DNA of 64,000 bases from Nitrosomonadales bacterium (GTDB taxonomy: Bacteria > Pseudomonadota > Gammaproteobacteria > Burkholderiales > Gallionellaceae), in NCBI GenBank assembly GCA_016235045.1, contig JACRME010000015.1, positions 3,296-67,295 on the forward strand, in the 5' to 3' direction. Shown piece after piece: positions 6,081 to 51,406 of this stretch (position 1 is the stretch's first letter; each line of letters opens with the position of its first letter). Made by a program: the position numbers and the translations under genes. The notes below the pieces were generated by a model. It had not been told where the DNA came from. It saw nothing but the letters and a program-made list of their open reading frames with translations, and ran no database searches.

Positions 6081-6242
6081 TTCCCTCCCCCTTGCAGGGG
6101 GATAACCAGCGACTTAGCTGGCGTTGTTTGCCAGCTTAGTCGAATGGCTAGTAGTTCCATCAGGGCTAGGGTGGGGGTAGAAACGTTGAGTACCCACAGA
6201 GTCAACCCCCTTCCTAACCTTCCCCCTGCAAGGGGGAAGGAA
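6081..6242. repeat. REP-B doublet (CCCTCCCCCTTGCAGGGGG... / ...CCTTCCCCCTGCAAGGGGGAAGG) carrying a nested 60-nt element
   Basis: G/C-rich palindromes of the family also seen at 8137, 18468, 22350, 25244, 44764 and 51221. It lies between rnfC and rnfD. Confidence 0.85.
6102..6161 (+). mobile_element. 60-nt hairpin element nested in a REP-B arm (copy 1)
   Basis: ATAACCAGCGACTTAGCTGGCGTTGTTTGCCAGCTTAGTCGAATGGCTAGTAGTTCCATC is inserted between ...TTGCAGGGGG and AGGGCTAGGG. Compare the uninterrupted site at 22350-22447. Confidence 0.7.
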
Positions 6243-8136: not shown

Positions 8137-8220
8137 TCTACCCCCACCCTACCCCTCCCCCTGCATGGGGGAGGGAACCGGCACCTTCCCCCTCTCAGGG
8201 GGAAGGCTGGGATGGGGGTG
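8137..8220. repeat. REP-B doublet
   Basis: TCTACCCCCACCCTACCCCTCCCCCTGCATGGGGGAGGG...CCTTCCCCCTCTCAGGGGGAAGG...GGGGGTG, between rnfG and rnfE. Confidence 0.8.
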
Positions 8221-8262
8221 TGATCTGAATGTATACCTCAAGGCTATGAGAGGAGGACGAGT

Positions 8263-8940
8263 ATGAACGACAAATACGCCCGCATCACCCGCGACGGCCT
8301 GTGGAACAACAACGTCGTGTTCGCGCAGATGCTCGCGCTGTGCCCGACGCTGGCGGTGACCAGCAGCGCCACCAACGGCCTCGGCATGGGGCTGGCCACC
8401 ACGGCGGTGCTGCTGCTTTCCAATATCATCATCTCCAGCGTGCGCCAGTTCGTCAGCGCCGAGGTGCGCATCCCGGTATACATCGTGCTGATCGCCACGC
8501 TGGTGACGCTGGTGGACATGAGCCTGAATGCCTGGGCGCATGAACTCTATAAAGTTTTGGGCCTGTTCATCGCGCTGATCGTGGTCAACTGCGCCATCCT
8601 CGGCCGCGCCGAAGCGTTCGCTTCCAAATCGAACATCCCCGACTCGGCGCTGGACGGCCTGATGATGGGCCTGGGCTTCACTGCTTCGCTGACGGTGATC
8701 GGCGGCATACGCGAGGTTTTCGGCAGCGGCACGTTGTTCGCCAACGCCCACCTGTTGCTGGGCCCGGCGTTCTCCTTCCTGGAGACGACCATCGTGCCGG
8801 AATACAAGGGTTTCCTGCTGATGATCCTGCCGCCCGGCGGATTCATGGTGGTGGGATTGCTGCTGGCCGCGAAGCGGGTGCTGGACCAGCGTCGCGCGGC
8901 GCGAGAAGTGGTCGCCGCGACTGAAGCGGCAGCGAGTTAA
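8263..8940 (+). CDS. rnfE: Rnf complex subunit E
   Basis: MNDKYARITRDGLWNNNVVFAQMLALCPTLAVTSSATNGLGMG... is an RnfE/NqrD-type polytopic protein. Confidence 0.9.
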   Translation: MNDKYARITRDGLWNNNVVFAQMLALCPTLAVTSSATNGLGMGLATTAVLLLSNIIISSVRQFVSAEVRIPVYIVLIATLVTLVDMSLNAWAHELYKVLGLFIALIVVNCAILGRAEAFASKSNIPDSALDGLMMGLGFTASLTVIGGIREVFGSGTLFANAHLLLGPAFSFLETTIVPEYKGFLLMILPPGGFMVVGLLLAAKRVLDQRRAAREVVAATEAAAS

Positions 8941-8951
8941 CACACAGTGCA

Positions 8952-9025
8952 GGGTGCAATAAGCGAAGCGCATTGCACCAAGATTGACGAAACATACGGC
9001 GCAATGCGCTTCGCTTATTGCGCCC
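8952..9025. repeat. REP-E inverted pair (GCAATAAGCGAAGCGCATTGC)
   Basis: GGGTGCAATAAGCGAAGCGCATTGCACC and its inverted copy GGCGCAATGCGCTTCGCTTATTGCGCCC are separated by about 18 nt. Confidence 0.7.
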
Positions 9026-9859: not shown

Positions 9860-10720
9860 TCATGCCGCCGCGAGGCTGCCGTTCCAGCTCTGCGCGGCAG
9901 TGAGGAAATCCGCCACGTCGGCATTCACGATCTCGATGTTGAGACGCTCCAGATAGCGCTTCTCCTTGTCGGTCGGGTGCGGGATCAGCGCCCATCCTGC
10001 AGGCTTGCTCGCGCCGAAGATGACGTCGGAGAACACCATGCGGTCGGTGTCGCGGTTCAGGCGCAGGCCGAGCAGCACGTAGCGCTTGTTCTGGCGCGAG
10101 CGCTTGACGAACGAGGGGATGGCGAAACCGCCCATCAACTCGGTGATGTAATCGACAAAGTCGGCATCCGAGGCGATGTAGCTGGATTCCGGCAGCGGCG
10201 TGCCCAGCGGCTTGAACAGCACCGGCAGGCTGGTATCCACCGCCTCCTGTTCGACCGGCGCATAGCTGCTGCCGTCGTAGTTGAAAATGCGGAAGCGGTA
10301 TTCCTTGCCGGACATGCGCGCGATGCCGACGATCAGCGTGTGCGGGGTGGCGGCATATTGCTTCTGGATCTGCGTGTCGCGGTTGCAGTCGATGATGCAA
10401 GGCAGCTTTTGCTGCGCCAGCCAGGCATGCAGTGCCGAGGTGCTCCATTGCGTGTCGCGATAGGTCGCATCGAGGAACTTGTTCACCGCCGAACGGCCGC
10501 GCTTCAGTTCCACGTTCATGGCCGCGCGCGGGAACTCATACATCAGCTTGGGGGCCATCGGCTGGCCGTTGTTCATCGCCAGGATCAGGCTGTCGCTGTC
10601 GGCCGGGATGGCGCGGCCCGAAGCCGGGTCGATCACGCCGTTCAGCGCGCCGGGGCCGAGGTAGGGGACGACGCTGCCGTCGGACAGTCCGGTGAAGATG
10701 GATTCGAACGCAGTGCTCAT
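9860..10720 (-). CDS. SIR2_2-like (Rossmann/SIR2-fold) protein of unknown role
   Basis: ORF 9860..10789 trimmed to ATG 10720 (RBS GAGGAG). Motifs resemble SIR2_2: PYLGPGA (GAG-type loop), IIDCNRD (TTNYD-like), SDADFVDY, LLGLRLNRDTD. The usual K-L-H-G catalytic His position reads F-K-P-L-G. Confidence 0.5.
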   Translation of the reverse strand: MSTAFESIFTGLSDGSVVPYLGPGALNGVIDPASGRAIPADSDSLILAMNNGQPMAPKLMYEFPRAAMNVELKRGRSAVNKFLDATYRDTQWSTSALHAWLAQQKLPCIIDCNRDTQIQKQYAATPHTLIVGIARMSGKEYRFRIFNYDGSSYAPVEQEAVDTSLPVLFKPLGTPLPESSYIASDADFVDYITELMGGFAIPSFVKRSRQNKRYVLLGLRLNRDTDRMVFSDVIFGASKPAGWALIPHPTDKEKRYLERLNIEIVNADVADFLTAAQSWNGSLAAA

Positions 10721-10875
10721 GGGGATGACTCCTCTTGTGATTGACAAGGAATCACTCGCAATAAGCGGGCCAGACGGCACATCCAGCATTGGCGCGGGTT
10801 ACGGACGGGCCGGGTTTGGAGGAAATGCGACAAAAGCGAAAACCCTGTCGCACAAGGGTGCGGGGGTAGGGCCTG

Positions 10876-10937: not shown

Positions 10938-11384
10938 TTATGCGGTGCTGCTTGCGGCCTTCCCGGCCAGTCTTAGCCCATCCCGGAAATTCATGCCCAT
11001 CAGGGTCAGTTGCACCGTTCCGACAATGAGCTCCACAGCCTGTACGGAGTAGAACAATGCATCGAACTCCCCCGCAACTGCCTTGCCGTTAAGAAAGATT
11101 GCCGCCGGAATCATCACCAGCAAACCATTGGCGCCGATGACCGCCATGCGTTTCTTCTTTAGCTCGAGCAAGTCGCCGCTGCGCATCCTGGACAGCATGA
11201 AGCCGGAGCCGCCGGTGGCGGCCATGCACGGCACCAGCAGGAACAGGCCGAAAACGATTGCGTGCTTGACTGCGGCCACGGCCGCATCGTCCAGGAATAT
11301 TTCCGAGACCAGCGTCGATACCCAGAAGAGGGCAATGATCAGCATGGCGGTTGCGCCGGCGGCGGCATGGATAACGGGTTTCAT
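10938..11384 (-). CDS. small integral membrane protein (4 predicted TM helices)
   Basis: 148-aa hydrophobic ORF. Its start overlaps the stop of the upstream MarR gene by 4 nt. Confidence 0.6.
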   Translation of the reverse strand: MKPVIHAAAGATAMLIIALFWVSTLVSEIFLDDAAVAAVKHAIVFGLFLLVPCMAATGGSGFMLSRMRSGDLLELKKKRMAVIGANGLLVMIPAAIFLNGKAVAGEFDALFYSVQAVELIVGTVQLTLMGMNFRDGLRLAGKAASSTA

Positions 11385-12037: not shown

Positions 12038-12802
12038 CTAAAGCTCGAACACGTGCCTGCGCTGCAACACCTGCGGTTTGAATTTTCCCGCTGCTTCGAG
12101 CACTTCCTGCAGGGTTGCATCTTCGTACCCGGCTTCCATGTGCACGATATACAAGTCCATCGGACGTTCCAGCAGGCGCAATCCCCGGGCCAGCAGTTCC
12201 GCCGTGGTGTGGCCGGAGCGCTCCGCCCCTGCGGCGTTGTCGTTGCGGAACGTGGTCTCGACCAACAGGTACTTCAGATTGTCGATGCGGTTCAGTGTCC
12301 GCCAGAAATCCTCGCAGAACGTAGTGTCGCCGCTGTACACCCAACTGGCCCGCCCGCTGTCCACCCGGTAGGCCACACAGGGCACGGAATGGCGCGCAGG
12401 CAGTGCCGTGATGCGCCTGCCGCCCAACTCCACGGTCTCGCCAAGGCGTATCGGTCGGAAACGGAGGAACGGGCGCTCGGGCGTGGGCTGCACCGTGTAA
12501 TCCGGCCACAGCCTGTTGTTGAGCATGTGTTCCTTGAGCGTGGCGATGGTCTCCGGCAGCGCATATACGGTTAGCGGCGATTCGCGGAAACTGCCGACGG
12601 CATCGGCCAGCAGGGGCAGGAAGGCGCAGTGATCGAGGTGCGAGTGGGTGAGGAAAACGGTGTCGATCGCAATGGATTGCGCCAGGCTCAACTCGCCCGC
12701 GCCGGAGCCGGCATCGACCAGGATGTCATGATCCACCTGGTAACAGGTGGTGCGCAGATTGCTGGTGATGCTGCCGTTACAACCGAGGGTGGTGATGCGC
12801 AT
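12038..12802 (-). CDS. cpdP: class II 3',5'-cyclic-nucleotide phosphodiesterase (metallo-beta-lactamase fold)
   Basis: ORF 12038..12937 trimmed to ATG 12802 (RBS GGAGGA). MRITTLGCNGSI...VDAGSGAG...VFLTHSHLDHC matches the class II cAMP PDE signature (HxHLDH). Confidence 0.75.
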   Translation of the reverse strand: MRITTLGCNGSITSNLRTTCYQVDHDILVDAGSGAGELSLAQSIAIDTVFLTHSHLDHCAFLPLLADAVGSFRESPLTVYALPETIATLKEHMLNNRLWPDYTVQPTPERPFLRFRPIRLGETVELGGRRITALPARHSVPCVAYRVDSGRASWVYSGDTTFCEDFWRTLNRIDNLKYLLVETTFRNDNAAGAERSGHTTAELLARGLRLLERPMDLYIVHMEAGYEDATLQEVLEAAGKFKPQVLQRRHVFEL

Positions 12803-12863: not shown

Positions 12864-13343
12864 TCAGGGGCGGCGAAAATGCACGACAAACCCTCCCAGC
12901 CAGACGACGAGGCCGACCAGGAAAGCAGCCATGCCACTGAAGAGCAGGGGCTCGGGAAGCAGCGGCGGGTTTTGTTCGTTCGCCTTGACTACCAGCCAAT
13001 GGACGAAGCAAATAAACACGGCGAGGAAGAAACTGAAGCGGCTGCTGTGCTTGCGAAGATAGGCGAGGGTGTCGGCCTGACGTTCCGGTGCCAGCCAGTA
13101 CTCGCGGTTGGGAAGATTGATGAAACGTGCAGGCAGCATACTGCCGATGCTCGTGAGCAGGGAGATCAGGAGCGGCAAGGCCACCAGCAATGCGACAGTG
13201 AGGTGCATATAGGTGTCGCGCGGCACAAAGCCGTTGGCCGCGCCGCCTGCGATGAAGTGCGAAGCGACCACCGGCGGCAACGAACGGCCGGTAACGAGGA
13301 CGAAGGCGACGGCGAACACCAGAGTCAGTAGCAGCGGGCGCAT
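12864..13343 (-). CDS. membrane protein (DUF1648-like)
   Basis: 159 aa with four hydrophobic segments. No catalytic motif recognised. Confidence 0.55.
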   Translation of the reverse strand: MRPLLLTLVFAVAFVLVTGRSLPPVVASHFIAGGAANGFVPRDTYMHLTVALLVALPLLISLLTSIGSMLPARFINLPNREYWLAPERQADTLAYLRKHSSRFSFFLAVFICFVHWLVVKANEQNPPLLPEPLLFSGMAAFLVGLVVWLGGFVVHFRRP

Positions 13344-13412: not shown

Positions 13413-13823
13413 TCATTTTGCGTCAAAGCCGATCTCGATGCCATACGTCAGCCTGGCCAGAGTACGCGGCGCTTTCTCGCCTTCGGCGAGCTCGCAACTG
13501 ACGACAACTTTATCGTTGCTTAGCCACGCGTAGGACACAGGCGTCTTGCAGTAGCCGGCGAAGAAGACGTAGCCATCATCCGGCTGCGCAAGCGTTTTTC
13601 CGAAGGACAGGGAAAGCGTCGTTCCATAAGGTGCGTGCCCCACCCCATCCTGATTGGATCTGAACTCGTGGATTGTTTTTTTTCCATCCGGGGATGGCAG
13701 CTGCGATCCTTTCGAGTAATTCAGGTTGTCCATCACAAAGCCCAGTGCCTGCAGCAGGATAAACAGTCCAATGACGAACCAAGGCAGCCTTGATGCGATC
13801 ATGGATGGGGAAATGCGCGACAT
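13413..13823 (-). CDS. hypothetical membrane-anchored protein
   Basis: 136 aa with one N-terminal TM helix (LPWFVIGLFILLQALGFV). No family recognised. Confidence 0.5.
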   Translation of the reverse strand: MSRISPSMIASRLPWFVIGLFILLQALGFVMDNLNYSKGSQLPSPDGKKTIHEFRSNQDGVGHAPYGTTLSLSFGKTLAQPDDGYVFFAGYCKTPVSYAWLSNDKVVVSCELAEGEKAPRTLARLTYGIEIGFDAK

Positions 13824-13848
13824 GTGGTTTTGAGCCTTATAGAGGTTA

Positions 13849-13873
13849 GAAAGCCCAGCGATGCTGGGCTTTC
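13849..13873. terminator. 11-bp GC-rich hairpin downstream of the kinase-HD gene
   Basis: GAAAGCCCAGC-gat-GCTGGGCTTTC. There is no clear U-tract on either strand, so its function as a terminator is uncertain. Confidence 0.35.
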
Positions 13874-14023
13874 TATTGTGAGAGGTATTTCGATGCTGAC
13901 CATATCACCGGACGTATTGCGATGCCCATATCGCTTCATGGTGCTTCATTTCTAGACCTGACCCATGTTCCACGAACACGGCCCCTTTAATGCCCCTTTA
14001 ATGCCCTCAGGGTACGTCCCCTA

Positions 14024-16366
14024 CTATTCGTCAAAATCAATTTTACCCCTGCCATCAAACATTTCTTCGGCAGACAAAATTATGCTTGGTATAAATGGCG
14101 CAGCTCTATTATGAATTTCAGGCCTAAGATAAACTCTAACTGGTGCGATATGTGCGGTAGGGAGAGTGAATATTGATTCAGCGAGATGCGAAACATCGGT
14201 AATCTGAACTTCGGTTCGTTCATCACCACGCAACACCTTAACCATTCTATTCGAGGGTTTGCCCCATGGCACATCAATTAATACGTCATTGGAAGAAACC
14301 TCAATATTTTTTTGCTGTAGTGCATTAATATATGCACCGCGTAAACGCCTAACCTGATCCCAATCAATAGGCATTGAATTACCATTCCCGTACGCAATCG
14401 ATGAGAGATTTTGCTTTACTATTCTTGAATAGATATTCTCGACTGACCGCTGCGTTGCATGTGTCGCATCAACCCAAGCATATCGCTTTATTGGAATATA
14501 TATTTCCTTGAAGTTGTAGTCCTTGTGCAAATTAACTAAACGTAGCGCATCCACACGATGTTTCTTTAATGCATCAGCCCTTGGCAGTAGAATGCGCTGC
14601 ATGGCGTCGTACTCACTGGAACAGTTCTTAAGCTGACCAACAATATTTCGCAAAATTGACAAATCACGACCAACAACAATATCTAAAAACCTGTGAAACA
14701 TAGCAAATAAGGCGCGAGTAGTTTCGTGCCAATATACTGAGGCCAGCATCTGGTCCTGGGCAAGAACCATACCCTCCACTGGTGCCACCCCATCTTCATG
14801 TATGACAAGGCGGCCAGTGGTAGGCGAACAGCGAAAGCTATTGAATATTTGCTCAACATTCAACCCATTGCCATAAGGGACGCCGCAGTGGTGAGCATCT
14901 CTGCGCAAATAGTCGATTTTGTCACAATCAATTGGCCCATCGAGAATATCTGACAAGAGTCCTGAACCGCCCTGCAAGTTTTTGTGTACTTCATCATTGC
15001 CATCTTCGCCCCAGTGATTCTCAATTGCTGACTTAAGGTCATTATCATTCTTTATTAGATGCAAAGAATGCTCAAAATGATGTATGTCAGATTTCAATTC
15101 TTTATCTTCAGGATACCTAGCCGCAACGTAGTGCTCTATGACATGCGCGAATGGATAATGCCCAACATCATGAAGAAGAGCCGCCAGTAATAGACCATCT
15201 ACATTTCGCTGATTGTGGTTTACCTTGAAGACTGGGTCGCGAATCAAGTGTTGCAGTGCTGAATATGCTGCACCATAAACGCCGATTGAATGCTCAAATC
15301 TAGTATGTGTACCACCGGGGAAAAACCACTCACAAAATGAAAGTTGTTTAATACCCCTTAGCCTTTGAAAACACTTGGTGTTAATGATATCCAGGATTGG
15401 TTCACCAACAGATATGCGCCCAGTAGCAGGCATAGGAATATATGATCTGTTACCGTCCCCCCCTAGCAATAGTCGCTCAGTTCTTGTGAGCAGCAAATTT
15501 GGGTCTATAACTTGCTCAAAGCGCTCACGAACAACACGCCAGTTATTTAGCTTTCCATAGTGCAGGTTAGCCGCAAAGTCCATGTAAGCTAACCGTTGTT
15601 CAGTATTTGCTTTACCAAAAAAAACATTTTTCATTAGGGCTAGCAGCCTGCCTAAAGCCCTAAAGTCGTTTTCTTGAAAGACCTGATTGTGTAATTGCCG
15701 ATCAACAGAATATCTGAAACCAGGTATATCAAATATATCCTTGTGACCAAGATGACCACGGTCATCTGTTGTTGGTGCCTCAGCAGACTCACGATGACCG
15801 GAACCGTAATCAATAATCATTATCCCGTCGGCGAGAATTCTGGGGCCGATTAGAATATTTTCTTCATGCAAATCGCAATGAGTTCTTCCCTCCCCATGCA
15901 AGTATTCCAATGCATCAATTAGTGATGTAACCACAAATGTTGCTTCACTTAACTCAATCATTTCCCCCGACGAACGAAATTGCGCCCAAGTTTGGCCTGG
16001 GTGAAATGTACAAACATAGTAGGGTAAGGGCGCGTTGGTATCCTCCTCATAGACTCTTGGGAGACACCTATGATTTAGTGGCTTCAATATTTCAACTTCT
16101 TTTTTGAGCGTTTCCCGAACGCGCTCACGATCACGATCAGCCACAGATTCCTTGACTGTTTTCAAGCAATATATACCTCGCTCACCACGCCAACGAATTT
16201 GAAAAGTTTGGCCAGTTTTTCCGCTAAGGTGTTCCTTATGAAAGTCATATCGAGAAAGAAGCTTCATTCCGATACTATCAATATAAGAAGGAAATGCTGC
16301 GGAGTCTGCACCTGCCAACAAGTTTCCGGTTTTACCTTGTTTTTTCATATCGACCACCAAAACCAT
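14024..16366 (-). CDS. fusion protein: N-terminal Ser/Thr-protein-kinase-like domain + SAMHD1/dGTPase-like HD phosphohydrolase domain + about 250-aa C-terminal region
   Basis: Kinase-like motifs: CLK (VAIK-type Lys), HCDLHEENILIG (catalytic loop, Asp and Asn kept), IIDYGSG (DFG-like). HD motifs: RFEHSIGV, LLHDVGHYPFAH, DCDKIDYLRRD, the spacing typical of SAMHD1-type dNTP triphosphohydrolases. Coding sequence is about 40% GC against more than 60% in the flanks. An alternative start is ATG 16348. Confidence 0.8.
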   Translation of the reverse strand: MVLVVDMKKQGKTGNLLAGADSAAFPSYIDSIGMKLLSRYDFHKEHLSGKTGQTFQIRWRGERGIYCLKTVKESVADRDRERVRETLKKEVEILKPLNHRCLPRVYEEDTNAPLPYYVCTFHPGQTWAQFRSSGEMIELSEATFVVTSLIDALEYLHGEGRTHCDLHEENILIGPRILADGIMIIDYGSGHRESAEAPTTDDRGHLGHKDIFDIPGFRYSVDRQLHNQVFQENDFRALGRLLALMKNVFFGKANTEQRLAYMDFAANLHYGKLNNWRVVRERFEQVIDPNLLLTRTERLLLGGDGNRSYIPMPATGRISVGEPILDIINTKCFQRLRGIKQLSFCEWFFPGGTHTRFEHSIGVYGAAYSALQHLIRDPVFKVNHNQRNVDGLLLAALLHDVGHYPFAHVIEHYVAARYPEDKELKSDIHHFEHSLHLIKNDNDLKSAIENHWGEDGNDEVHKNLQGGSGLLSDILDGPIDCDKIDYLRRDAHHCGVPYGNGLNVEQIFNSFRCSPTTGRLVIHEDGVAPVEGMVLAQDQMLASVYWHETTRALFAMFHRFLDIVVGRDLSILRNIVGQLKNCSSEYDAMQRILLPRADALKKHRVDALRLVNLHKDYNFKEIYIPIKRYAWVDATHATQRSVENIYSRIVKQNLSSIAYGNGNSMPIDWDQVRRLRGAYINALQQKNIEVSSNDVLIDVPWGKPSNRMVKVLRGDERTEVQITDVSHLAESIFTLPTAHIAPVRVYLRPEIHNRAAPFIPSIILSAEEMFDGRGKIDFDE

Positions 16367-16503
16367 ACATCACGTGTCATGCAATTAAGCTTCTTTGAAA
16401 AAACACCCCGCTGTGCACGTGCACACACCAACCGCGCAGCATGACTGTGCGGCACAGTCTTTCTGTGGTGGTGTACCACACGACAATATCTGCCCACACT
16501 CAC

Positions 16504-17253
16504 TTATCTGCAATCCAATGTAGGCATTTCATCCCAAGTCTTCCCATCAAAGATTCGGCCATTGTTTCTTTTCGGTCGTTTCTTACCATCCGCACCCCAT
16601 CCGCCCCATTGCTTGAAGAAAAACGCTACACCATCTTTCTCACATTGCTCTTTTATTGTTTCCACCCACGCTGCTTTCATTGGCCTAGCCTTGGGGCCGG
16701 ATTCGCCACCTACGATCACCCAGTGTATGCCGCGCAAATCCATTACGCCAACATCATCCAGCAATGGTTCGACTGATAAGAATCGAATACCCGCATTAAT
16801 TTCCCGCAAGTCATCAATTCGCTGAAGACCATATTGTCTATTCTCCACAGATACGCCTAGCCAGACATTGTCAGGCACTAGACGCCCTCGCGTCGAAAAA
16901 TACTTGCGCATCCTTGCTGACCGTTTGGTCAATATCTGATACGTGTGTTGTGGTGTGCGTTTGATCACATCAAATACCTGATCGAGAAACTCAAAAGGTA
17001 TGTCGTTATGAAATAGATCGCTCATTGAGTTAACAAAGTACGTCGTCTTTTTACGCCGCATCAGCGGTTGCTCAAGACGCTCGGGCAGGATGCTGAGATT
17101 GAAGCCGTTCTCGTACCCCCTCGCACCCATTGCCTTAAGCCGCTTCGCCATGACCTCTGCGTAGCAATGTTTGCAGCCGGGCGATATCTTTGTGCATCCC
17201 GTTGTCGGGTTCCACGTTTGCTCTGTCCATTCTATTGTTGTTGTGCTTGTCAT
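16504..17253 (-). CDS. DUF5131 / phage Gp37-Gp68 family three-Cys-motif protein
   Basis: ORF 16504..17274 trimmed to ATG 17253 (RBS AAGGAGG 5 nt upstream). TIEWTEQTWNPTTGCTKISPGCKHCYA is the family's N-terminal signature. ...VIVGGESGP...FFFKQWGG also fits. Confidence 0.8.
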   Translation of the reverse strand: MTSTTTIEWTEQTWNPTTGCTKISPGCKHCYAEVMAKRLKAMGARGYENGFNLSILPERLEQPLMRRKKTTYFVNSMSDLFHNDIPFEFLDQVFDVIKRTPQHTYQILTKRSARMRKYFSTRGRLVPDNVWLGVSVENRQYGLQRIDDLREINAGIRFLSVEPLLDDVGVMDLRGIHWVIVGGESGPKARPMKAAWVETIKEQCEKDGVAFFFKQWGGWGADGKKRPKRNNGRIFDGKTWDEMPTLDCR

Positions 17254-17322
17254 ATGTACCTCCTTAGCTCGCAACTAATTCTAAAGCATTTCGACCTTGG
17301 TCTCTTCGCACGCAGGCATCAA

Positions 17323-18144
17323 TCAAAACAAATCACCTTGTCCCTCTGGGTTTGCGGCTGTTTTCCAGAACTTATGTGCCAATTCATGGCGTGCGGCAAG
17401 CAATAGCCAGTAAAGCGGCTGATTCTTCTCACCTGTGATGAGCCGCTGATCAATTGACGGCCATACACCAAGACTCGTTACTTTCTCACGCCAATACTCA
17501 ACCACACGCATGCGGATTTCTTGCTGTGCACCAGTCGTTGCCACGCGTGCGCGCCAACCAGGAGCAAAAGCATCAAAGGCTGAATCATCGGCGGCCAGAT
17601 TTACTGATAAATTGCGGTTCAAATCCATAGCGCTGAGGTGTATCAGTAGGTCAATTCGTTTGAGCGCGGCAAGAGTGCTGATCACTTTGAAGTCCAATGC
17701 CTCTAAGCTGTAAGGATCGACGAAAGCGAAATGAAGCGCATAACCACTGACCGCTGATACCATTTTATCGACAGCATCCGCTGCACAAGCGTGGATTGGA
17801 TGTACAGGTGCATTGAGCTTGCGTAGCCTCTCAGCACATGCATTTAGCTTTATCTCGTCGTTGTCGGAAATGTAGATATCTGTAAACGGAGCTCCGCCTT
17901 CAAGACTGGTTTTCCATGCGCCAACAACACCGCCATCAATCCACTCATTAGTACCTCTGATACGTGAACGTCCGGTTCCGCAAAATAAATCGAAATAAAC
18001 AGCGCCACCCTTTCGCTCACCGATATATTTCTTTCGCGTGCCGCGTGAGATATCTAGATATCGCTTGAGATAGGAGTGCTTCTCTTTTGCCCATGCGCCT
18101 ACTTCATCAGCAGGCAGACCATCATCGCCGTCAATTAGCGCCAC
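17323..18144 (-). CDS. tcmP: three-Cys-motif partner protein TcmP-like (methyltransferase-like fold)
   Basis: ORF 17323..18240 trimmed to GTG 18144 (RBS AGAGGAAG). DGLPADEVGAWAKEKHSYLKRYL...YFDLFCGTG... resembles the TcmP family, which is regularly encoded next to DUF5131 proteins. Confidence 0.65.
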   Translation of the reverse strand: MALIDGDDGLPADEVGAWAKEKHSYLKRYLDISRGTRKKYIGERKGGAVYFDLFCGTGRSRIRGTNEWIDGGVVGAWKTSLEGGAPFTDIYISDNDEIKLNACAERLRKLNAPVHPIHACAADAVDKMVSAVSGYALHFAFVDPYSLEALDFKVISTLAALKRIDLLIHLSAMDLNRNLSVNLAADDSAFDAFAPGWRARVATTGAQQEIRMRVVEYWREKVTSLGVWPSIDQRLITGEKNQPLYWLLLAARHELAHKFWKTAANPEGQGDLF

Positions 18145-18199
18145 AGCACTTCCTCTTAATGTGTGATATGACGAAGCGCGGGCGTACAAAGTGTGGCCA

Positions 18200-18280
18200 T
18201 ACAATCGGCCTGAGTGAAGAATGTTCGGTGAGTCTCGCAATCAAGTGCTTCCCCTTTGCTGAACAAGTGTGCCGCTGGCG
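18200..18280 (-). repeat. 81-nt conserved leader/promoter module (copy A), upstream of the tcmP-like gene
   Basis: About 87% identical to 20411-20492 and nearly identical over the central 50 nt or so (GATCAAGTGCTTCCCCTTTGCTGAACAAGTGTGCCGCTGGCGATGC). Confidence 0.75.
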
Positions 18281-18467
18281 ATGCTTCCCGTCGGTGCGGG
18301 AATCTATCCTTGCGCCAGCTCCTATCCTGGGGAGTCCGCTGTGAGCCTTGCACCGTGCGTGCGGTGCGATGTGCGTGGGGCGGAGTTGCAAGTGGGATGA
18401 ACTGTAGGGGTATGGGGCGGGTTGTGTCAATTGTACTGAGGGGGCGAAGTTGTGAAGCAGCACAGAG

Positions 18468-18506
18468 TCTACCCCCACCCTAGCCCTCCCCCTGGGAGGG
18501 GGAGGG
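18468..18506. repeat. REP-B unit
   Basis: TCTACCCCCACCCTAGCCCTCCCCCTGGGAGGGGGAGGG. Confidence 0.8.
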
Positions 18507-18537
18507 AATGCTGGTCCATGTTTAGGACACAGTAAGA

Positions 18538-20505
18538 CTAACGGAAATTAATCGCACCGATGTCATACCCGTCGGCGCTTGGTCGCGGTGTGCGATAGAA
18601 ATCTTCAAAGACTGCGACCGGCGTGCCCGCGCCGATGGCCGGGCTGGATGCGCCGAGGCGGAAAAAGTCGGCGCTGGCCGGGTTCGCCGAAACCAGTTGC
18701 GGGTCGGCCAGCAGCGAATGGCTGTCGAGGCCCAACGCTTGCCAGCCGCTCAGATCGTACCTTGCCGTGGGCAGGCCGGAGGGGCCGACGGCGAACGGAT
18801 TTGCCTTGCTCGGTTTGTAGTAGAGGTTGTTGCTCAGGGCGATGCCGGTGGTCGCACCGAGGTTGATGAGTTCGCCCAAGCCGTTGATCCCCGGATTCTC
18901 CGACCACATCAGGTTGTTGCGCACTTCCCAGTTGCTCACCGCGGGCAGCTCGATATTCAGAAAATCGCCGTTGCCGATGTTGAGTCCGGTGGTGTTCGGC
19001 GTCATGTAGACTGAGTTGTTGAGTACATGCACGTTGCTCGCCCCGCAGGCGCCGCGGAATGCAAGGTTCATGTCGTAGATCAGGTTGTTGCGGACCATCG
19101 CGTCGTTTTCGGTCAGGTCGATGCCGGTGGAGATGTAGTCATCATTGGCGGGGTTGCCGTCGGGCTTGAGGATATTGCGTTCGATGAGCAGCATGCCGAG
19201 GTTGCGGTCGACAGCCAGCGAGAAATCGCACTCCACGTCGCTCGCGCTGGTGGCGATGCGCGAGGTGCCGGCGGTGATGATGTTGTCGGTGATGACGCCG
19301 CGCCGGGAATGCCACTTGATGCCGGTGGTCGGCGCGGCGCGGCTGGCATCGATCAGGTTGTCGGTGATGTAGACGTTGCGGCTCTCGCTCGGCCGGATAA
19401 AGCTGACCGCGATGCGCATCTGGTCGACGCTGCTGCCCATCAGCGCGCTGTCGACGCCGTCGACGTAGACGGAGAAATAGGCGTTGTTCTGCACCTGCGA
19501 GTTGTAGAGATAGCTTCTGTCGCCGCCTACTCCCCAGCCGACTTCGTTGCCGTTGTGGATCGAAAGGTTCATGCCGAGGAATTCGGTGCCGGTGCTCCCC
19601 ACGACGGTCGCGCCTTCGGTATTGGCTGGCGGCAGGTTGGTGCCGTCGAGGTCGAGGTCCATCACCCGCCAGTCCGTGCCGCTGACCAGCAGGCCTGCAC
19701 TCTGCCCCGGGTTTGCGCCCAGTTGCAGGATAGGCCGCGCGCCGGGGCCGAACGCGCCCAGCGTGTTGGGACCGCTGCCGCTCAGCGCGAGGGAGACCCC
19801 GGGCCAGGTCTCGCCGCTGCGCAGCAACAGGCGGCGATTGGCCGCAGCGTTCAGCCAGCTCAACTGTGCCGCCAGATCGGTAGAGGTAAGCGTCGCGCAG
19901 TTCGCCGGTGCATCGGTGAAGTCGCCCGTGCGCGAAACGCAGCGGGTTGCGTTCCCGGCGTAAACGGCTGCCGGATCGCTCACGGTGATGCTGACCGTAC
20001 CCACCGGACCAAGCCGCCCGGCACGATCCCGCACGCTGACGCTGACAACGTAAGTGCCGGGGGTTTCAAAAACATGCGCCGCCAGAAATCCGGTCGCCCG
20101 GTTGCGGCTCTTGCCGGTGGTCTGCCACACGCCGGCGCTGGCATCGTCGAAGTCCCAACTGAAATTCGCCGAGAGAAAGTCGTCACCGGTTAGCCCCGTA
20201 GTAGCGCTGGCATCAAAGAAGACTGCGAGCGGCGCAACGCCCGCCGTGCGACTCGGCGTTAGCGTAACCAGGATGTCGGTCAAAACGGGGGTAGATGGGG
20301 ATGGAGCCGACGAGCCCCCGCAAGCCGTCAGGCCCAGGCAGACCAGCAGGAGGAAGATCAGACCACGCCGGGGGTGGAAAATGGCGATAGGGACAGACCG
20401 TTTACTTGGGCTGAATATTGAATATTTGGTGAGACTTGCGATCAAGTGCTTCCCCTTTGCTGAACAAAGTGTGCCGCTGGCGATGCATCCCGACTGATGG
20501 AACAA
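18538..20505 (-). CDS. secreted lipoprotein with PKD domain and right-handed parallel beta-helix region
   Basis: Lipobox LLLVCLGLTAC. PKD-like segment (APLAVFFDAS...FSWDFDD...HVFETPGTYVVSVSVRD). Repeated NN-I/L beta-helix turns (ITDNLI, VRNNLIY, VLNNSVY, VRNNLMW). The start is uncertain: the ORF's first 50 codons or so read through the conserved leader repeat, and no ATG, GTG or TTG lies just before the signal peptide. Confidence 0.7.
   Translation of the reverse strand: MFHQSGCIASGTLCSAKGKHLIASLTKYSIFSPSKRSVPIAIFHPRRGLIFLLLVCLGLTACGGSSAPSPSTPVLTDILVTLTPSRTAGVAPLAVFFDASATTGLTGDDFLSANFSWDFDDASAGVWQTTGKSRNRATGFLAAHVFETPGTYVVSVSVRDRAGRLGPVGTVSITVSDPAAVYAGNATRCVSRTGDFTDAPANCATLTSTDLAAQLSWLNAAANRRLLLRSGETWPGVSLALSGSGPNTLGAFGPGARPILQLGANPGQSAGLLVSGTDWRVMDLDLDGTNLPPANTEGATVVGSTGTEFLGMNLSIHNGNEVGWGVGGDRSYLYNSQVQNNAYFSVYVDGVDSALMGSSVDQMRIAVSFIRPSESRNVYITDNLIDASRAAPTTGIKWHSRRGVITDNIITAGTSRIATSASDVECDFSLAVDRNLGMLLIERNILKPDGNPANDDYISTGIDLTENDAMVRNNLIYDMNLAFRGACGASNVHVLNNSVYMTPNTTGLNIGNGDFLNIELPAVSNWEVRNNLMWSENPGINGLGELINLGATTGIALSNNLYYKPSKANPFAVGPSGLPTARYDLSGWQALGLDSHSLLADPQLVSANPASADFFRLGASSPAIGAGTPVAVFEDFYRTPRPSADGYDIGAINFR
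20411..20492 (-). repeat. 81-nt conserved leader/promoter module (copy B), upstream of the PKD/beta-helix gene
   Basis: See 18200-18280. It is immediately followed (20496-20520) by a 25-nt fragment of the 60-nt nested element. Confidence 0.75.
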
Positions 20506-20675: not shown

Positions 20676-21347
20676 CTAGACTGTAAGTGCTGTACATAAG
20701 CGCTCGACCTGACGATTGAATGCAGATTCCTCGTTGTGTCCTCTAAAGTCAGCCGCCACACGTGACTGCAACTGTCGCGCAAGATCTTTCCGTTCTGGCT
20801 CCCAACGGGACAAGACGAAATCATCTAACAGAACTGGAATCAAGAGTTCTGTACCTCCTTCGCGTGCCTCACGCGTAAGGGTTTGCTCGAGTTCATTCAG
20901 CCAACCTGGACGAGTAACTGCAGCCTCCGAGCAAATGGAGACTACGACGTCGTATTCATAAACAGCATCTGCCATCGTTCGATGTAGGCGCCGACCTGGA
21001 ATTGAGGACTCTGGGAAGTAATAGGTATGAACGCCTTTGCTCAGAAGCGCCTCATAGAGTTTTCGCGCAAAAACTTCATCTGGCCCGCCGTAGCTTATGA
21101 ACGCCGTCTTGAACTTTGCCGGCTTAACAACCGGATTTGCGGCTCTGTCTAGTCTTCCGACTGTCTGTGCGGATAGATCGCCCGAGCGTGCAATTTCAGC
21201 TATTGACGGACCATTCGGTAAGTTTCGCAGTGCAAGCATTTGCTGCACGAATTGCGACGTCTCTGGCGCGAGACCGAGGTCATCCAGGAACGGCTTAAGC
21301 CGTTCATAGTTCTCGGGCGTGAGTTTTACGGCGGCGGCTACGAACAT
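20676..21347 (-). CDS. TIR-domain protein with about 75-aa N-terminal helical domain
   Basis: KTAFISYGGPDEVFARKLYEALLSKGVHTYYF (TIR box 1-like) and RPGWLNELEQTL (the W-x-x-E-L motif carrying the NADase Glu in catalytic TIRs). It has its own RBS (AAGGGGAA) and lower GC than draT. Confidence 0.75.
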   Translation of the reverse strand: MFVAAAVKLTPENYERLKPFLDDLGLAPETSQFVQQMLALRNLPNGPSIAEIARSGDLSAQTVGRLDRAANPVVKPAKFKTAFISYGGPDEVFARKLYEALLSKGVHTYYFPESSIPGRRLHRTMADAVYEYDVVVSICSEAAVTRPGWLNELEQTLTREAREGGTELLIPVLLDDFVLSRWEPERKDLARQLQSRVAADFRGHNEESAFNRQVERLCTALTV

Positions 21348-21500: not shown

Positions 21501-22574
21501 TCAATACGCCGCGATACTCACCTCATACAACCCGCCAATCACAGTGTACTCGTCCTCCCCCTGCAACATCCCCGGCAGCAATCTCGTGTAGCAGAACACT
21601 TTGGCCAGCGGCACTTGCGCGGTGAGCAGGTAGTCGCCGAACTCGTCGGCGCGTTCGCGGTTGGCGGTGAAGGAGCTCAGGCTGTTGAAGAGGACGACGC
21701 GGTGTTTGTTGTCCAGGAGGGCGAGTGTTTCGTGATCGTCAACGCGGTTAACGCCGCGGTAGAGGGTGAGGTGGGTTTCGCCGGGATACAGTCTGGCGAG
21801 TTCGTACTGGCAAAAGGTGTAGAGCAGGTCGAACTGCGATTCCAGCGCGTTGGTTCCGTATAGCGCGGTGGCGCGCATCTCCAGGTAGTGGCGGTAGGCT
21901 TCGCCCGACAAGTTGCGTATCTGCCCGCCGTGATGTCTTGGCAACAAGCCGAAGCGCGATTCCACCCAGCCTTTCAATGCCGCGCCTTCGCGGCCGTCTG
22001 CATCGAAACTCCAGCCGCGCACCATGCGCAGATAGTCGGCTTTCTGCCGCTTGTGTGTCGCTTGTGCGGTGTAGCCCGCCTGTTCCGGTTCGTCCAGATA
22101 GAACGAGGCGTTCATGTGCATGGTGAAGGCGTCGGCGCGTTCCTTTGGACTGTCGATGCGATCCAGCAGTTGGAACAGGCCGCGATGAAACTGGGCCACG
22201 CCGTCGAGTTCAAGGGCGACGGGCGAACGCTGGAAGGTGAGTCCGCCGAGGATGTCGGCGGGGAGGTTGCAGCGGTTGATCGGTAGCCGCGCGCTGCGTG
22301 GCAGAACGATGGACTTGCTTTCAGATAATCCATTAGCTGCAACAACATGCCCTCCCCCTTGCAGGGGGAGGGGTAGGGTGGGGGTAGAGTCGATGGGCTC
22401 CAGCGCTTCTACCCCCATCCTGGCCTTCCCCCTGCAAGGGGGAAGGGACTGGTGCTGCCCTGGTGAACTATCCGGGGTGACTTCGGGGGTTGTAGGCACT
22501 GCTACAAAGGCATCGGCTTTGTTGTGTTCCACATCCGCCATTGCTTGTGGGGTTGTTTTATTTTTCTTATGCAT
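21501..22574 (-). CDS. draT: NAD(+)-dinitrogen-reductase ADP-D-ribosyltransferase DraT (with atypical about 85-aa N-terminal extension)
   Basis: From INRCNLPADILGGLTFQRSPVALELDGV... through ADYLRMVRGWSFDADGREGAALKGWVESRFGL...LTLYRGVN...FNSLSSFTANRERADEFG...GEDEYTVIGGLYEV it is collinear with Rhodospirillum/Azospirillum DraT. It is divergent from nifH. The start is uncertain (see findings). Confidence 0.85.
   Translation of the reverse strand: MHKKNKTTPQAMADVEHNKADAFVAVPTTPEVTPDSSPGQHQSLPPCRGKARMGVEALEPIDSTPTLPLPLQGGGHVVAANGLSESKSIVLPRSARLPINRCNLPADILGGLTFQRSPVALELDGVAQFHRGLFQLLDRIDSPKERADAFTMHMNASFYLDEPEQAGYTAQATHKRQKADYLRMVRGWSFDADGREGAALKGWVESRFGLLPRHHGGQIRNLSGEAYRHYLEMRATALYGTNALESQFDLLYTFCQYELARLYPGETHLTLYRGVNRVDDHETLALLDNKHRVVLFNSLSSFTANRERADEFGDYLLTAQVPLAKVFCYTRLLPGMLQGEDEYTVIGGLYEVSIAAY
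22350..22447. repeat. REP-B doublet, uninterrupted (empty-site reference for the 60-nt nested element)
   Basis: CCTCCCCCTTGCAGGGGGAGGGGTAGGGTGGGGGTAGAG...TCTACCCCCATCCTGGCCTTCCCCCTGCAAGGGGGAAGG. It lies in frame inside the long draT ORF. Confidence 0.8.
22491..22506 (+). promoter_or_regulatory. NifA UAS for nifH
   Basis: TGTAGGCACTGCTACA is an exact TGT-N10-ACA, about 100 nt upstream of the nifH -24 element. Confidence 0.7.
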
Positions 22575-22666: not shown

Positions 22667-23563
<897 letters not shown>

Positions 23564-23569
23564 GAATAA

Positions 23570-23716
23570 AGACCATTTAGCCACAGAGCTCACAGAGCAC
23601 ACAGAGAGAAACGGAAGTTGATAACGCAAGCGGAGTCACGAAGGAAAAGGCTGTCAGGTTTCAGGTTTGGCCTTCCTCTGTGATCTCTGTGTCCTCTGTG
23701 GCAAAAATGTTTTTGA
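23570..23716. repeat. MITE-like CACAGAG-arm element (copy 2)
   Basis: TTAGCCACAGAGCTCACAGAGCACACAGAGAG ... CCTCTGTGATCTCTGTGTCCTCTGTGGCAAA, between nifH and nifD. Confidence 0.8.
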
Positions 23717-23761
23717 ACCTGACAGACTCCACAGATTAGTGGGTCATTAAAGGAGAATGAA

Positions 23762-25237
23762 ATGTCTGCATTAACACGCGAAGAAACCCAGGCCCTGATT
23801 CAAGAGGTGCTTGAGGTTTATCCCGAGAAAGCAAAGAAAGACCGCGAGAAGCACCTGGCGGTCAACGACCAATCGATCGAACAGTCCAAGAAGTGCATCA
23901 CCTCCAACCGCAAATCGTTGCCGGGCGTGATGACCATTCGCGGTTGCGCCTACGCCGGTTCCAAGGGTGTGGTGTGGGGCCCGATCAAGGACATGATCCA
24001 CATTTCCCACGGCCCGGTCGGCTGCGGCCAGTATTCCCGCGCCGGTCGCCGTAACTACTACGTCGGCACCACCGGCGTGAACACTTTCGGCACGATGAAC
24101 TTCACTTCCGACTTCCAGGAAAAGGACATCGTGTTCGGCGGCGACAAGAAGCTCGCCAAAGTAATGACTGAAATCGATGCCCTGTTCCCGTTGAACAAAG
24201 GCATCTCGATTCAATCCGAGTGCCCGATCGGCCTGATCGGCGACGACATCGAAGCGGTCGCGAAAAAGACTGCGGCAGAAACCGGCAAGGTGGTAGTACC
24301 GGTGCGCTGCGAAGGTTTCCGCGGCGTGTCGCAATCGCTCGGTCACCACATCGCCAACGACGCGATCCGCGACTGGGTGCTGCCCCGCCGCGACGGCAAG
24401 GCGCATGAAAGCACGCCTTACGACGTGGCCGTGATCGGCGACTACAACATCGGCGGCGACGCCTGGTCTTCGCGCATCCTGCTGGAAGAAATGGGTCTGC
24501 GCGTGGTTGCGCAATGGTCCGGCGACGGCACCATCGCCGAGATGGAAAAGACGCCCTACGTCAAGATGAACCTCATCCACTGCTACCGTTCGATGAACTA
24601 CATCGCGCGTCACATGGAAGAGAAGTACAGCATCCCCTGGATGGAATACAACTTCTTCGGCCCGACCAAGGTTGCCGAGTCGCTGCGTGCCATCGCCGCG
24701 CACTTCGACGACAAGATCAAGGAAGGCGCAGAACGCGTCATCGCCAAGTACAAGGCAATGATGGACGAGATCATCGCCAAGTACAAACCGCGTCTCGAAG
24801 GCAAGCGCGTCATGTTGTACGTCGGCGGTCTGCGTCCGCGTCACGTGATCGGTGCCTATGAAGATCTGGGCATGGAAGTGGTCGGTACCGGTTACGAGTT
24901 CGGTCACAACGACGACTACGACCGCACCATCAAGGATATGGGCAACGCGACGCTGATCTATGACGACGTCACCGGCTTCGAGTTCGAAGAGTTCGTGAAG
25001 CGCGTCAAGCCAGACCTGGTCGGTTCCGGCATCAAGGAAAAGTTCATCTTCCAGAAGATGGGCGTTCCCTTCCGCCAGATGCATAGCTGGGACTACTCCG
25101 GCCCGTATCACGGCTACGACGGCTTCGCCATCTTCGCCCGCGACATGGACATGACTTTGAACAACCCGTGCTGGGGCAAGATGCAGGCGCCGTGGTTGAA
25201 GAAGGATGAGCCGGTCGCGGAGAAGGCGGCAGCGTAA
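23762..25237 (+). CDS. nifD: nitrogenase molybdenum-iron protein alpha chain
   Basis: 491 aa. ...[35 protein letters not shown]...HCYRSMNY... are canonical NifD motifs. Confidence 0.97.
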
Positions 25238-25243
25238 GTACCA

Positions 25244-25351
25244 CCCCTCTACTCCCTCCCCCTTGCAGGGGGAGGGCGGGGGAGAGGGTAGAAGTAGTCA
25301 GGTTCCACGACTCTACCCTCTCCCTAACCCTCTCCCTGCAAGGGAGAGGGG
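25244..25351. repeat. REP-B / REP-B' cluster (…CCCTCCCCCTTGCAGGGGGAGGG… and …CCCTCTCCCTGCAAGGGAGAGGG…)
   Basis: Two palindromic units lie between nifD and nifK. The second (CTCTCCC type) is the family also found inside nifN. Confidence 0.8.
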
Positions 25352-25365
25352 ACGGAGGAAGAAAT

Positions 25366-25400
25366 GTAGGGTGGGTTAGGCCGCAAGGACGTAACCCACC
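25366..25400. repeat. REP-D-like hairpin
   Basis: GTAGGGTGGGTTAGGCCGCAAGGACGTAACCCACC. Confidence 0.6.
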
Positions 25401-25463
25401 AGCATCACCACCTTAACTGATGCTCGTGTCCGCAGATTGGCGGCTCGGGCCAAGGAGATAAAC

Positions 25464-44763: not shown

Positions 44764-44925
44764 CCCCTCCCCCTTGCAGGGGGATAACCAGCGACTTGGC
44801 TGGCGTCGTTTGCCAGCCTAGACGAATGGCTAGTAGTTCCATCAGGGTTAGGGAGGGGGTAGAAACGGTATTGCTGCACAACTCTACCCCCATCCTAACC
44901 TTCCCCCTGCAAGGGGGAAGGAACG
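44764..44925. repeat. REP-B doublet carrying a nested 60-nt element
   Basis: Same architecture as 6081-6242 and 51221-51385. It lies between the NrfD-like and TorD-like genes. Confidence 0.85.
44784..44843 (+). mobile_element. 60-nt hairpin element nested in a REP-B arm (copy 3)
   Basis: ATAACCAGCGACTTGGCTGGCGTCGTTTGCCAGCCTAGACGAATGGCTAGTAGTTCCATC, at the same insertion point (GCAGGGGG^ ... ^AGGG). Confidence 0.7.
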
Positions 44926-51385: not shown

Positions 51386-51406
51386 AGTCAATGGTGGGAG
51401 CACAAC

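Follow-up and report, generated by a model that had tools for sequence, protein, structure and literature searches.

A low-GC block beside the nif genes of a Gallionellaceae bacterium: a probable composite of two cargo modules, one encoding a kinase::SAMHD1-like fusion

Beside the nitrogen fixation (nif) genes of a Nitrosomonadales bacterium of the family Gallionellaceae lies a block of low guanine-plus-cytosine (GC) content with three genes on its minus strand, and the question it raises is whether those genes make up one system or more than one. The block was analysed within a 64,000-nt stretch of contig JACRME010000015.1, here called the window. Its genes, in order of reading, encode TcmP, a three-Cys-motif partner protein; DUF5131, a Gp37/Gp68-type protein; and a fusion of a Hanks-type Ser/Thr kinase with the core of a SAMHD1/EF1143-type deoxynucleoside triphosphate (dNTP) hydrolase, or dNTPase, called the kinase-HD gene below. 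A sequence-only reading of the window had taken the three together as a single candidate defence or nucleotide-depletion module. The comparisons reported here point elsewhere: on balance, the block is probably a composite of two cargo modules, separately acquired and functioning independently in the gap between draT and cpdP, with TcmP and DUF5131 as module A and the fusion as module B, the latter a putative kinase-switched nucleotide-depletion defence.

Composition, co-occurrence, and the junction between modules

At 1-kb resolution, the block at 13.85-18.45 kb is the lowest-GC stretch in the window. Over successive 400-nt windows GC falls from 0.61-0.65 (12.2-13.4 kb) to 0.41-0.46 (14.0-16.4 kb), stands at 0.46-0.50 from 16.4 to 18.2 kb, and has returned to 0.63 by 18.4 kb. 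With a sliding window of 2,343 nt, the length of the kinase-HD gene, the minimum GC is 0.432 at position 14001, about 7.6 standard deviations below the background of 0.599 ± 0.022 for windows of that size starting outside approximately 11.5-18.3 kb. GC at third codon positions (GC3) is 0.375 in the kinase-HD gene, 0.438 in TcmP, and 0.512 in DUF5131, as compared to 0.797 in cpdP and 0.799 in the PKD gene on the other side. The abrupt drop in base composition described by the sequence-only reading was thus borne out (GC from about 0.60 to 0.43-0.50, GC3 from 0.80 to 0.38-0.51), the three minus-strand genes lie where it had placed them, and the compositional shift upholds the foreign origin it had proposed for the block.

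The unity of the block is another matter. Outside the window, 32 loci encoding TcmP were examined (27 viral or prophage, 3 plasmid, 2 metagenomic), of which 31 were informative, one viral contig being cut inside TcmP. DUF5131 directly adjoins TcmP in all 31 (26 of 26 viral, 3 of 3 plasmid, and 2 of 2 metagenomic loci), and the kinase-HD gene is found at none of the 32. In the other direction, nine neighbourhoods of the fusion were available, drawn from eight homologues of 43-74% identity and limited by the DNA recovered; within that DNA, neither precomputed Pfam annotation nor tblastn located a TcmP or a DUF5131 gene in any of the nine.

The boundary between the modules can be placed with the help of a TcmP 98% identical to that of the window (P0241), encoded on two JGI contigs (L098 and L099). 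Its surroundings there are unrelated to the window (POR, AMP-binding, ACT, and hemerythrin genes); DUF5131 follows TcmP, and an IS110 transposase follows DUF5131. By blastn, the only DNA common to the window and these contigs is 16497-18443 (1,949 bp, 91.8% identity), a minus-strand cassette of leader, TcmP, and DUF5131 that runs from about 300 nt upstream of the TcmP start to 7 nt past the DUF5131 stop. The adjoining 130-nt spacer and the kinase-HD gene are outside the common DNA. The modules also differ in GC (0.500 for module A, 0.438 for module B) and in the closeness of their nearest relatives: TcmP has relatives at 98, 89, and 88% identity and many within 80-98%, while the nearest relative of the fusion is at 77%. 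It is because co-occurrence is zero in both directions, homology ends before the kinase-HD gene, GC differs, and closest-relative identities differ that we favour two acquisitions. The inter-module spacer (16367-16496, minus strand), which contains a palindromic hairpin with a 7-bp stem at 16443-16459 and is not shared with the near-identical cassette elsewhere, would be the junction between them.

A single three-gene system, gained and working as a unit, would fit the common orientation of the genes, their spacers of only 69 nt (TcmP-DUF5131) and 137 nt (DUF5131-kinase-HD), their enclosure in one low-GC block, the absence of any strong terminator between them, and the defence-type affinities of all three. 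Such a system should reappear elsewhere as a trio, and in the loci and neighbourhoods above, a small sample, it does so in 0 of 32 and 0 of 9. The near-identical cassette, moreover, stops just past DUF5131 and runs into IS110, the modules are unlike in GC and GC3, and their closest relatives stand at 98 and 77% identity. We therefore regard the single system proposed by the sequence-only reading as highly improbable. Two features nonetheless speak against the composite reading: the trio is co-oriented with short spacers, which leaves room for co-transcription and hence for some local functional coupling, and the empty-site comparison by which the block is seen as inserted cargo comes from one distant relative.

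That comparison is as follows. To the left, the block is flanked by cpdP (12038-12802, minus strand), which shares 81% identity with its counterpart in Ferrigenium kumadai and 78% with the one in Sideroxydans lithotrophicus, values that mark the host as a Gallionellaceae-like iron oxidiser; to the right are a PKD/choice-of-anchor-Q gene, a TIR_2-domain gene, draT (21501-22574), and nifHDK (22685-27032). The corresponding region of S. lithotrophicus ES-1 reads nifKDH-draT-PAS sensor-cpdP and lacks the genes of the island. The nearest cpdP relatives compared were 78-83% identical, and among them cpdP lies beside nif only in S. lithotrophicus; in F. kumadai and one further relative it has no nif linkage. 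Because the gap in S. lithotrophicus lacks the island genes and cpdP is elsewhere not linked to nif, the draT-cpdP interval is variable between these (distant) relatives, and with its TIR gene included it behaves as a small variable cargo site. Insertion into an otherwise conserved nif region, as the sequence-only reading had it, stands in so far as the gap in ES-1 lacks these genes, on a comparison that is thin and distant.

A kinase fused to a SAMHD1-type core

Module B (approximately 13.85-16.49 kb) consists of one minus-strand gene, 14024-16366, a 780-aa open reading frame (ORF). The NCBI model of the same protein (P0001, 100% identity) has 774 aa, which implies a start at 16348. A kinase domain and helical linker occupy residues ~25-300 (15467-16294, minus strand; Pkinase match at residues 48-197, with secondary structure), and a complete SAMHD1-type catalytic core, recognized by residue alignment and fold, occupies residues ~301-780 (14027-15466, minus strand). 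In Pfam the protein matches Pkinase (5e-16; 59 bits against a cut-off of 31.7), HD (7e-7), and HD_assoc_2 (3e-7). These domain assignments had been made by the sequence-only reading, as had DUF5131 and TIGR04474 for the other two genes; all hold, and the HD half is truly SAMHD1-like.

Residue conservation was assessed across 28 homologues of 32-74% identity. The invariant residues of the kinase are K69 (the beta-3 Lys), E90 (the alpha-C Glu), H163-C164-D165 with N170 (the HxD catalytic loop and its Asn), and D186 (the DFG-type Asp). The activation segment contributes the equally invariant T200, but an APE motif could not be made out. In the HD half, the metal ligands H359, H399, D400, and D482 correspond to H167, H206, D207, and D311 of SAMHD1 and are invariant, as are R356, H403, H408, K483, Y486, and D490 (SAMHD1 R164, H210, H215, K312, Y315, and D319). 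The allosteric-site-1 motif reads N329...Q334...R337 against D137, Q142, and R145 in SAMHD1, with Asn at the D137 position as in EF1143. Searches with phmmer matched the HD half to 2hek, EF1143 (2o6i), 2q14, and SAMHD1 at 1e-20 to 1e-27. An AlphaFold2 (AF2) model of the fusion has a predicted local distance difference test score (pLDDT) of 89.1 and a predicted template-modelling (pTM) score of 0.82, and its top Foldseek matches all contain SAMHD1; about 500 columns of the catalytic core, C-terminal lobe included, are aligned, and for structures of that core the target-normalised template-modelling (TM) scores are 0.65-0.73. Residues and fold together show conservation of both active sites and a complete dNTPase core, and from them the kinase is predicted to be catalytically competent.

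The family is small and scattered. At 90% identity its members fall into about 94 clusters, some 80 of them near full length, and a set of 1.84 billion clusters at 50% identity yielded about 30 full-length representatives. They are distributed very patchily over unrelated phyla. A more distant tier at 26-31% identity (725-791 aa; P0095-P0120 and others) has the same Pkinase + HD + HD_assoc_2 architecture and takes in proteins from Promethearchaeota (Asgard) and other archaea. In one host a homologue of the fusion, P0019, is directly flanked by a tyrosine integrase on one side and a PrimPol/D5_N primase on the other (L083, 6805-13257; L084, 185-6637, where an HTH_17 gene stands between them) and looks like the cargo of a small integrative, satellite-like element. 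Other neighbourhoods contain insertion sequence (IS) elements with RelE/HTH genes, DUF4062 (twice), TIR, RNase_T, AAA_15/21 with an Eco57I-type methyltransferase, or an ORC/CDC6-like gene with PRTase-CE and an N6_N4 methyltransferase. In 6 of 8 other hosts the fusion gene is poorer in GC than the flanking DNA. No conserved downstream partner was found, the 235-aa and 210-aa ORFs that follow two of the homologues being unrelated. A contig scan with patterns from the HD motifs of the fusion returned only stand-alone HD paralogues (aligning at residues ~300-560, 28-39% identity), which say nothing about co-occurrence. Module B is a solitary gene that travels alone, is rare and usually compositionally foreign, and sits in mobile or defence-type contexts.

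Relative to SAMHD1 and EF1143, the C-terminal 480 residues of the fusion align by sequence, with metal ligands, catalytic His, and site-1 motif kept. The fusion has no SAM domain and carries instead the N-terminal Hanks-type kinase, so that any control by phosphorylation would be exerted in cis, with no need of a separate cyclin-dependent kinase (CDK). With the nucleotide-depletion defences (dGTPase, dCTP deaminase, Clover, and the octameric dGTPases) it would have its effector chemistry in common, namely depletion of dNTPs by an HD domain as predicted from sequence. Defence by dCTP deaminase needs that protein's own fused nucleotide-kinase domain, and defence by dGTPase is also on record (10.1101/2021.04.26.441389); in Clover, a regulated dNTPase system, CloB restrains the dNTPase CloA (PMC12265719). 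The fusion resembles dCTP deaminase and Clover in coupling a depletion enzyme to a regulatory module and differs in having a protein kinase as regulator in place of a P-loop nucleotide kinase or a nucleotidyltransferase. From the Dgt-type dGTPases it is set apart by TIGR01353 (23.9 bits against a cut-off of 152.35) and by a match to the PADLOC dGTPase model that is only marginal. A Hanks-type kinase core with its catalytic set intact is held in common with PD-T4-6, Stk2, and MAD6; within the aligned stretches, however, none of the PD-T4-6 or MAD6 models reaches the dNTPase half. A 2026 survey of dGTPase fusions lists SAM, NLR, TIR, CARD, death, and SIR2 domains without once using the term "kinase" (PMC13519002). 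Our literature search found no description of a kinase::SAMHD1-like fusion, although most subscription journals were outside its range and absence is thus unproven. The claim of the sequence-only reading that the combination was undescribed can accordingly be kept for the fusion, with that limit, and is given up for the TcmP/DUF5131 pair, which is already represented in TIGR04474 and PADLOC.

We infer that module B would be a self-contained, one-protein nucleotide-depletion defence in which the fused kinase serves as a built-in switch for the dNTPase. Upon infection the kinase may autophosphorylate, the invariant T200 being a candidate site, and/or phosphorylate the dNTPase core. Phosphorylation would alter the allosteric or oligomeric activity of the core, whether by switching it on or off, and hydrolysis of dNTPs, the presumed substrate, would starve phage DNA replication. 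Such a phospho-switch is plausible because there are precedents in dCTP deaminase, in Clover, and at T592 of SAMHD1. Human SAMHD1 is controlled by phosphorylation at T592, and phosphomimetic T592E structures (e.g. 4zwg) are among the Foldseek matches of the fusion. The full proposal, that the fusion is an immune protein whose kinase phospho-switches the dNTPase in cis as a prokaryotic counterpart of CDK control of human SAMHD1, is tentative, and we hold it as a possibility open to considerable doubt. Kinase-gated nucleotide depletion could be an ancient module, since the same architecture is present in a distant clade that includes Asgard archaea.

The same protein might serve a different end. 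As a non-immune, accessory regulator of the dNTP pool or cell cycle, or a signalling protein, it would resemble housekeeping Dgt or EF1143-type dNTPases; stand-alone HD paralogues of its clade are indeed widespread on the chromosomes of Chlorobi, Planctomycetes, and other groups, and a Dgt is reported to promote cell-cycle progression in Caulobacter (PMC12186491). One largely metabolic neighbourhood (L086) and the lack of a whole-protein match in PADLOC agree with such a role. A regulator of this kind would hardly be expected in a family so patchy and rare, missing at this locus from related Gallionellaceae, compositionally foreign both here and in most other hosts, and recurrent beside integrase/primase, IS, toxin-antitoxin, DUF4062, TIR, and restriction-modification-like genes, and we consider it unlikely. 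Stk2 and PD-T4-6 are kinases that phosphorylate host or phage proteins and so abort infection, and the roles of the two halves might be reversed on their pattern, with the kinase as effector and the SAMHD1-like part as nucleotide sensor, oligomerisation scaffold, or second, parallel effector. The best PADLOC matches of the fusion are to kinases (PD-T4-6, 1e-12 to 1.6e-17; mad6, 1.6e-13), the kinase catalytic set is invariant, and the conserved allosteric-site motif (N329, Q334, R337) makes nucleotide sensing plausible. The PADLOC matches, however, are confined to the generic kinase core (residues 43-207), where Pfam Pkinase scores as well or better; NF047741 MAD6 reaches 33 bits, its cut-off being 460. 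Besides, every catalytic residue of the SAMHD1 set (the metal ligands, H403, and H408) is invariant, which speaks for an active hydrolase rather than a scaffold. A kinase effector is in our judgement distinctly unlikely.

The preferred account of module B as a kinase-switched defence has evidence to contend with as well. PADLOC contains no whole-protein match for the fusion, its dGTPase model PDLC02374 matching only marginally (1.8e-4 over 73 profile positions), and its kinase models, as just noted, do no better than a generic one. The L086 neighbourhood is not obviously defence-rich, and on the short contig of the closest homologue (L095) DUF4747 is accompanied only by genes that lack annotation. 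Neighbours were classed as defence-type by eye, in nine neighbourhoods only and without an enrichment statistic. Finally, plasmid, phage, and IMG/VR searches for the fusion returned nothing or HD-only relatives, the IMG/VR scan having used close-relative patterns only.

TcmP and DUF5131 as a travelling pair

Module A is defined by two genes already known as a pair, both from NCBIfam TIGR04474, whose name ("three-Cys-motif partner protein") reflects the pairing, and from the PADLOC candidates PDC-M41 and PDC-M30. DUF5131 (249 aa; 16504-17253, minus strand) matches PF07505 at 369.3 bits against a cut-off of 28.9 (1e-110) and has the Cys motif C20-x6-C27-x2-C30. It is homologous to TIGR04471, the radical SAM mobile pair protein A, without being a member (98.8 bits, cut-off 355; 3e-28), and the DUF5131 family is assigned to the radical-SAM superfamily by RadicalSAM.org (Megacluster-5-2; PMC9477430). 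TcmP (273 aa, GTG start; 17323-18144, minus strand) matches TIGR04474 at 168.1 bits against a cut-off of 53; its GTG start is backed by its closest listed homologues, nearly all of which, to an identity as low as about 73%, have the same length of 273 aa. In PADLOC, DUF5131 matches PDC-M30B (8e-114) and PDC-M41B (3.8e-112) over nearly its full length. The matches of TcmP are weak, at 1e-9 to PDC-M41A (positions 8-169 of 275) and 1e-3 to PDC-M30A, and in this the window pair departs from the PADLOC candidates; it resembles them in being adjacent and in having both proteins pass curated cut-offs (TIGR04474 and PF07505). By model matches, with PADLOC system rules not applied, components A and B of PDC-M41 are thus both present and adjacent in the window. 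These matches, together with those of the fusion to PD-T4-6 and mad6, confirm the defence-type contents that the sequence-only reading had ascribed to the block.

No Pfam family matches TcmP even at E = 10. Its AF2 model (alignment-based) has a pLDDT of 77.6, and its top 50 matches in the PDB are all class-I S-adenosylmethionine (SAM) methyltransferases, Trm1, RlmJ, and MnmM among them (TM 0.26-0.42, E ~1e-4); BFVD gave the same fold class. Invariant motifs are FDLFCGxG (residues 51-58, motif-I-like) and D143-P144-Y (motif-IV-like). On the strength of the model, TcmP is predicted to have a class-I SAM-methyltransferase fold with N6/N4-methyltransferase-like motifs.

Adjacency of the two genes is conserved and orientation is not. 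The pair is convergent (tail to tail) in 25 of the 26 viral loci and tandem in the window, in L098/L099, and in L123. Effectively always inherited together, TcmP and DUF5131 are common in temperate phages and plasmids. In phage genomes they occupy early or lysogeny regions of temperate phages: in L114 they lie between the repressor and Gam/RecT/NinB genes, some 4.8 kb from a DNA methyltransferase, and L111 is a Mu-like phage carrying the pair. Plasmid copies lie beside restriction-modification, PIN, DUF262, and integrase genes. Plasmid versions also differ from that of the window in having a second, longer TcmP paralogue, which on a Burkholderia plasmid (L090, 3693-4964, minus strand) is 423 aa long and has a weak match, below the cut-off, to a GMT-like winged helix-turn-helix (3.6e-5), which suggests that some TcmP proteins carry a DNA-binding module. 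In Sinorhizobium meliloti a TcmP gene is close to the Hna defence gene (SMa2243, SMa2245; PMC12445080).

What module A does can be proposed only in outline. It would be a self-promoted two-gene cassette, its promoter being a consensus match (see below), and may encode two enzymes that use SAM to modify a nucleic acid or nucleotide, either as a mark of self or as a means of interfering with an invader. It is also possible, and in our estimate a serious contender if not the expected outcome, that module A is a cassette remnant of phage-derived nucleic-acid modification, anti-restriction or epigenetic marking, with no immune meaning for the host. The 27 TcmP loci on viral or prophage contigs, many at extreme contig ends, fit that origin, as do the repressor-Gam/RecT/NinB position with its nearby DNA methyltransferase in L114, the Mu-like L111, the predicted methyltransferase fold of TcmP, and the naming of DUF5131 after phage Gp37/Gp68 together with its match to phrog_2045. 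Early regions of prophages also house superinfection-exclusion and defence genes, however, and the company of the plasmid copies, the S. meliloti copy near Hna, and the standing of the pair as a PADLOC defence candidate all leave room for an immune role. Against that role, and against the methyltransferase assignment on which our outline draws, it must be said that the structural matches of TcmP are weak at the TM scores given, with the C-terminal 45 residues of the model unreliable. The tie of PDC-M30 to phage resistance is correlative only (32 P. aeruginosa strains, 68.8% phage-resistant; PMC10855318). No functional study of the TcmP/DUF5131 pair was found in our literature search, from which most subscription journals were again missing, so that absence is unproven.

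Edges and neighbours of the block, and its meaning

A perfect inverted repeat of 13 bp around a 3-nt loop (13847-13859 / 13863-13875; 100% complementary) marks the low-GC block on its left; it lies about 150 nt downstream of the kinase-HD stop and could act as a terminator-like hairpin. Just 3' of the same stop, direct reading shows an 11-nt tandem duplication (GCCCCTTTAAT x2, then a partial GCCCT) at 13981-14002 on the plus strand. Upstream of TcmP is a leader element of about 73 nt (18219-18290, minus strand), with a second copy at 20420-20492 (90% identity) and a third kept in L098 (9854-9925); it could be a portable promoter or 5' untranslated region. No Rfam family matches it, and a sigma-54 reading made by eye was dropped, the spacing being off by one. 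The 20420-20492 copy either forms the 5' end of the PKD gene or precedes it, and since the element overlaps the first ~30 codons of ORF 18538-20505, the TTG start of that ORF is probably over-called. Inside the module A leader is a sigma-70-like promoter, TTGACA-18-TACAGT (18401-18430, minus strand), at 10 of 12 positions a consensus match only. Directly outside the right end of the cassette is a repetitive extragenic palindromic (REP)-like unit of the host lineage (18457-18513), of which the window contains at least seven further copies, among them 6195-6242, 8137-8177, 22343-22454, 25253-25292, 44873-44923, and 51347-51386. REP-like elements recur several times in L098/L099, and because they are common to those contigs and the window, this suggests that the contigs come from a related lineage. 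Rfam gave only spurious miRNA-type matches over 13-23 kb, on the REP palindrome (an inverted pair at 22.35-22.45 kb). The left hairpin, the duplication, the leader repeat, and the REP unit of the sequence-only reading were all recovered, and its statement on mobility genes is correct: the three island proteins have no integrase or transposase domain and the 64-kb window no tRNA. No convincing flanking direct repeats or att sites were found.

Further genes of the gap and its surroundings deserve mention. The TIR_2-domain protein (223 aa; 20676-21347, minus strand; TIR_2 2.4e-17) has a GC3 of 0.49, as compared to 0.80 in flanking genes; it is a third foreign, defence-type gene in the draT-cpdP gap, separated from the island by the host-like PKD gene. 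Between cpdP and the island, a 136-aa ORF (13413-13823, minus strand) encodes an N-terminal hydrophobic helix and is intermediate in composition (GC 0.545, GC3 0.66), with no match in Pfam, NCBIfam, PADLOC, or PHROGs. ORFs 12864-13343, 8149-8973, and 10938-11384 had no match in Pfam or PADLOC, the two databases searched. ORF 9860-10789 (309 aa, minus strand), of normal GC and with no PADLOC match, aligns to SIR2_2 below threshold (E 8.5e-4; 19.9 bits, cut-off 24.5), a match that is probably not significant. The product of cpdP, a class-II cyclic AMP phosphodiesterase of the metallo-beta-lactamase fold, matches PF23023 (Anti-Pycsar_Apyc1), as do its homologues in L093, L094, and L097, because the fold is common to cpdP and phage anti-Pycsar enzymes; cpdP is a core gene in Gallionellaceae.

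The two-module reading corrects the unit of study, in that cloning the trio together would test two unrelated things at once. For module A it directs attention to the tight linkage and phage association of TcmP and DUF5131, within the frame of a radical-SAM-like enzyme and a methyltransferase-fold partner. The draT-cpdP gap beside nif in Gallionellaceae may harbour further accessory genes. The interest of the locus, however, rests almost wholly on module B. Nucleotide-depletion immunity is established, and the means by which a toxic dNTPase is restrained before infection are under active study, as Clover and SAMHD1 T592 illustrate. What the fusion would add is nucleotide-depletion immunity with a new, fused regulatory domain. 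Its HD core aligns directly to SAMHD1 by sequence, unlike the Dgt-type defensive dGTPases, and it offers a single-polypeptide model of phospho-controlled nucleotide depletion.

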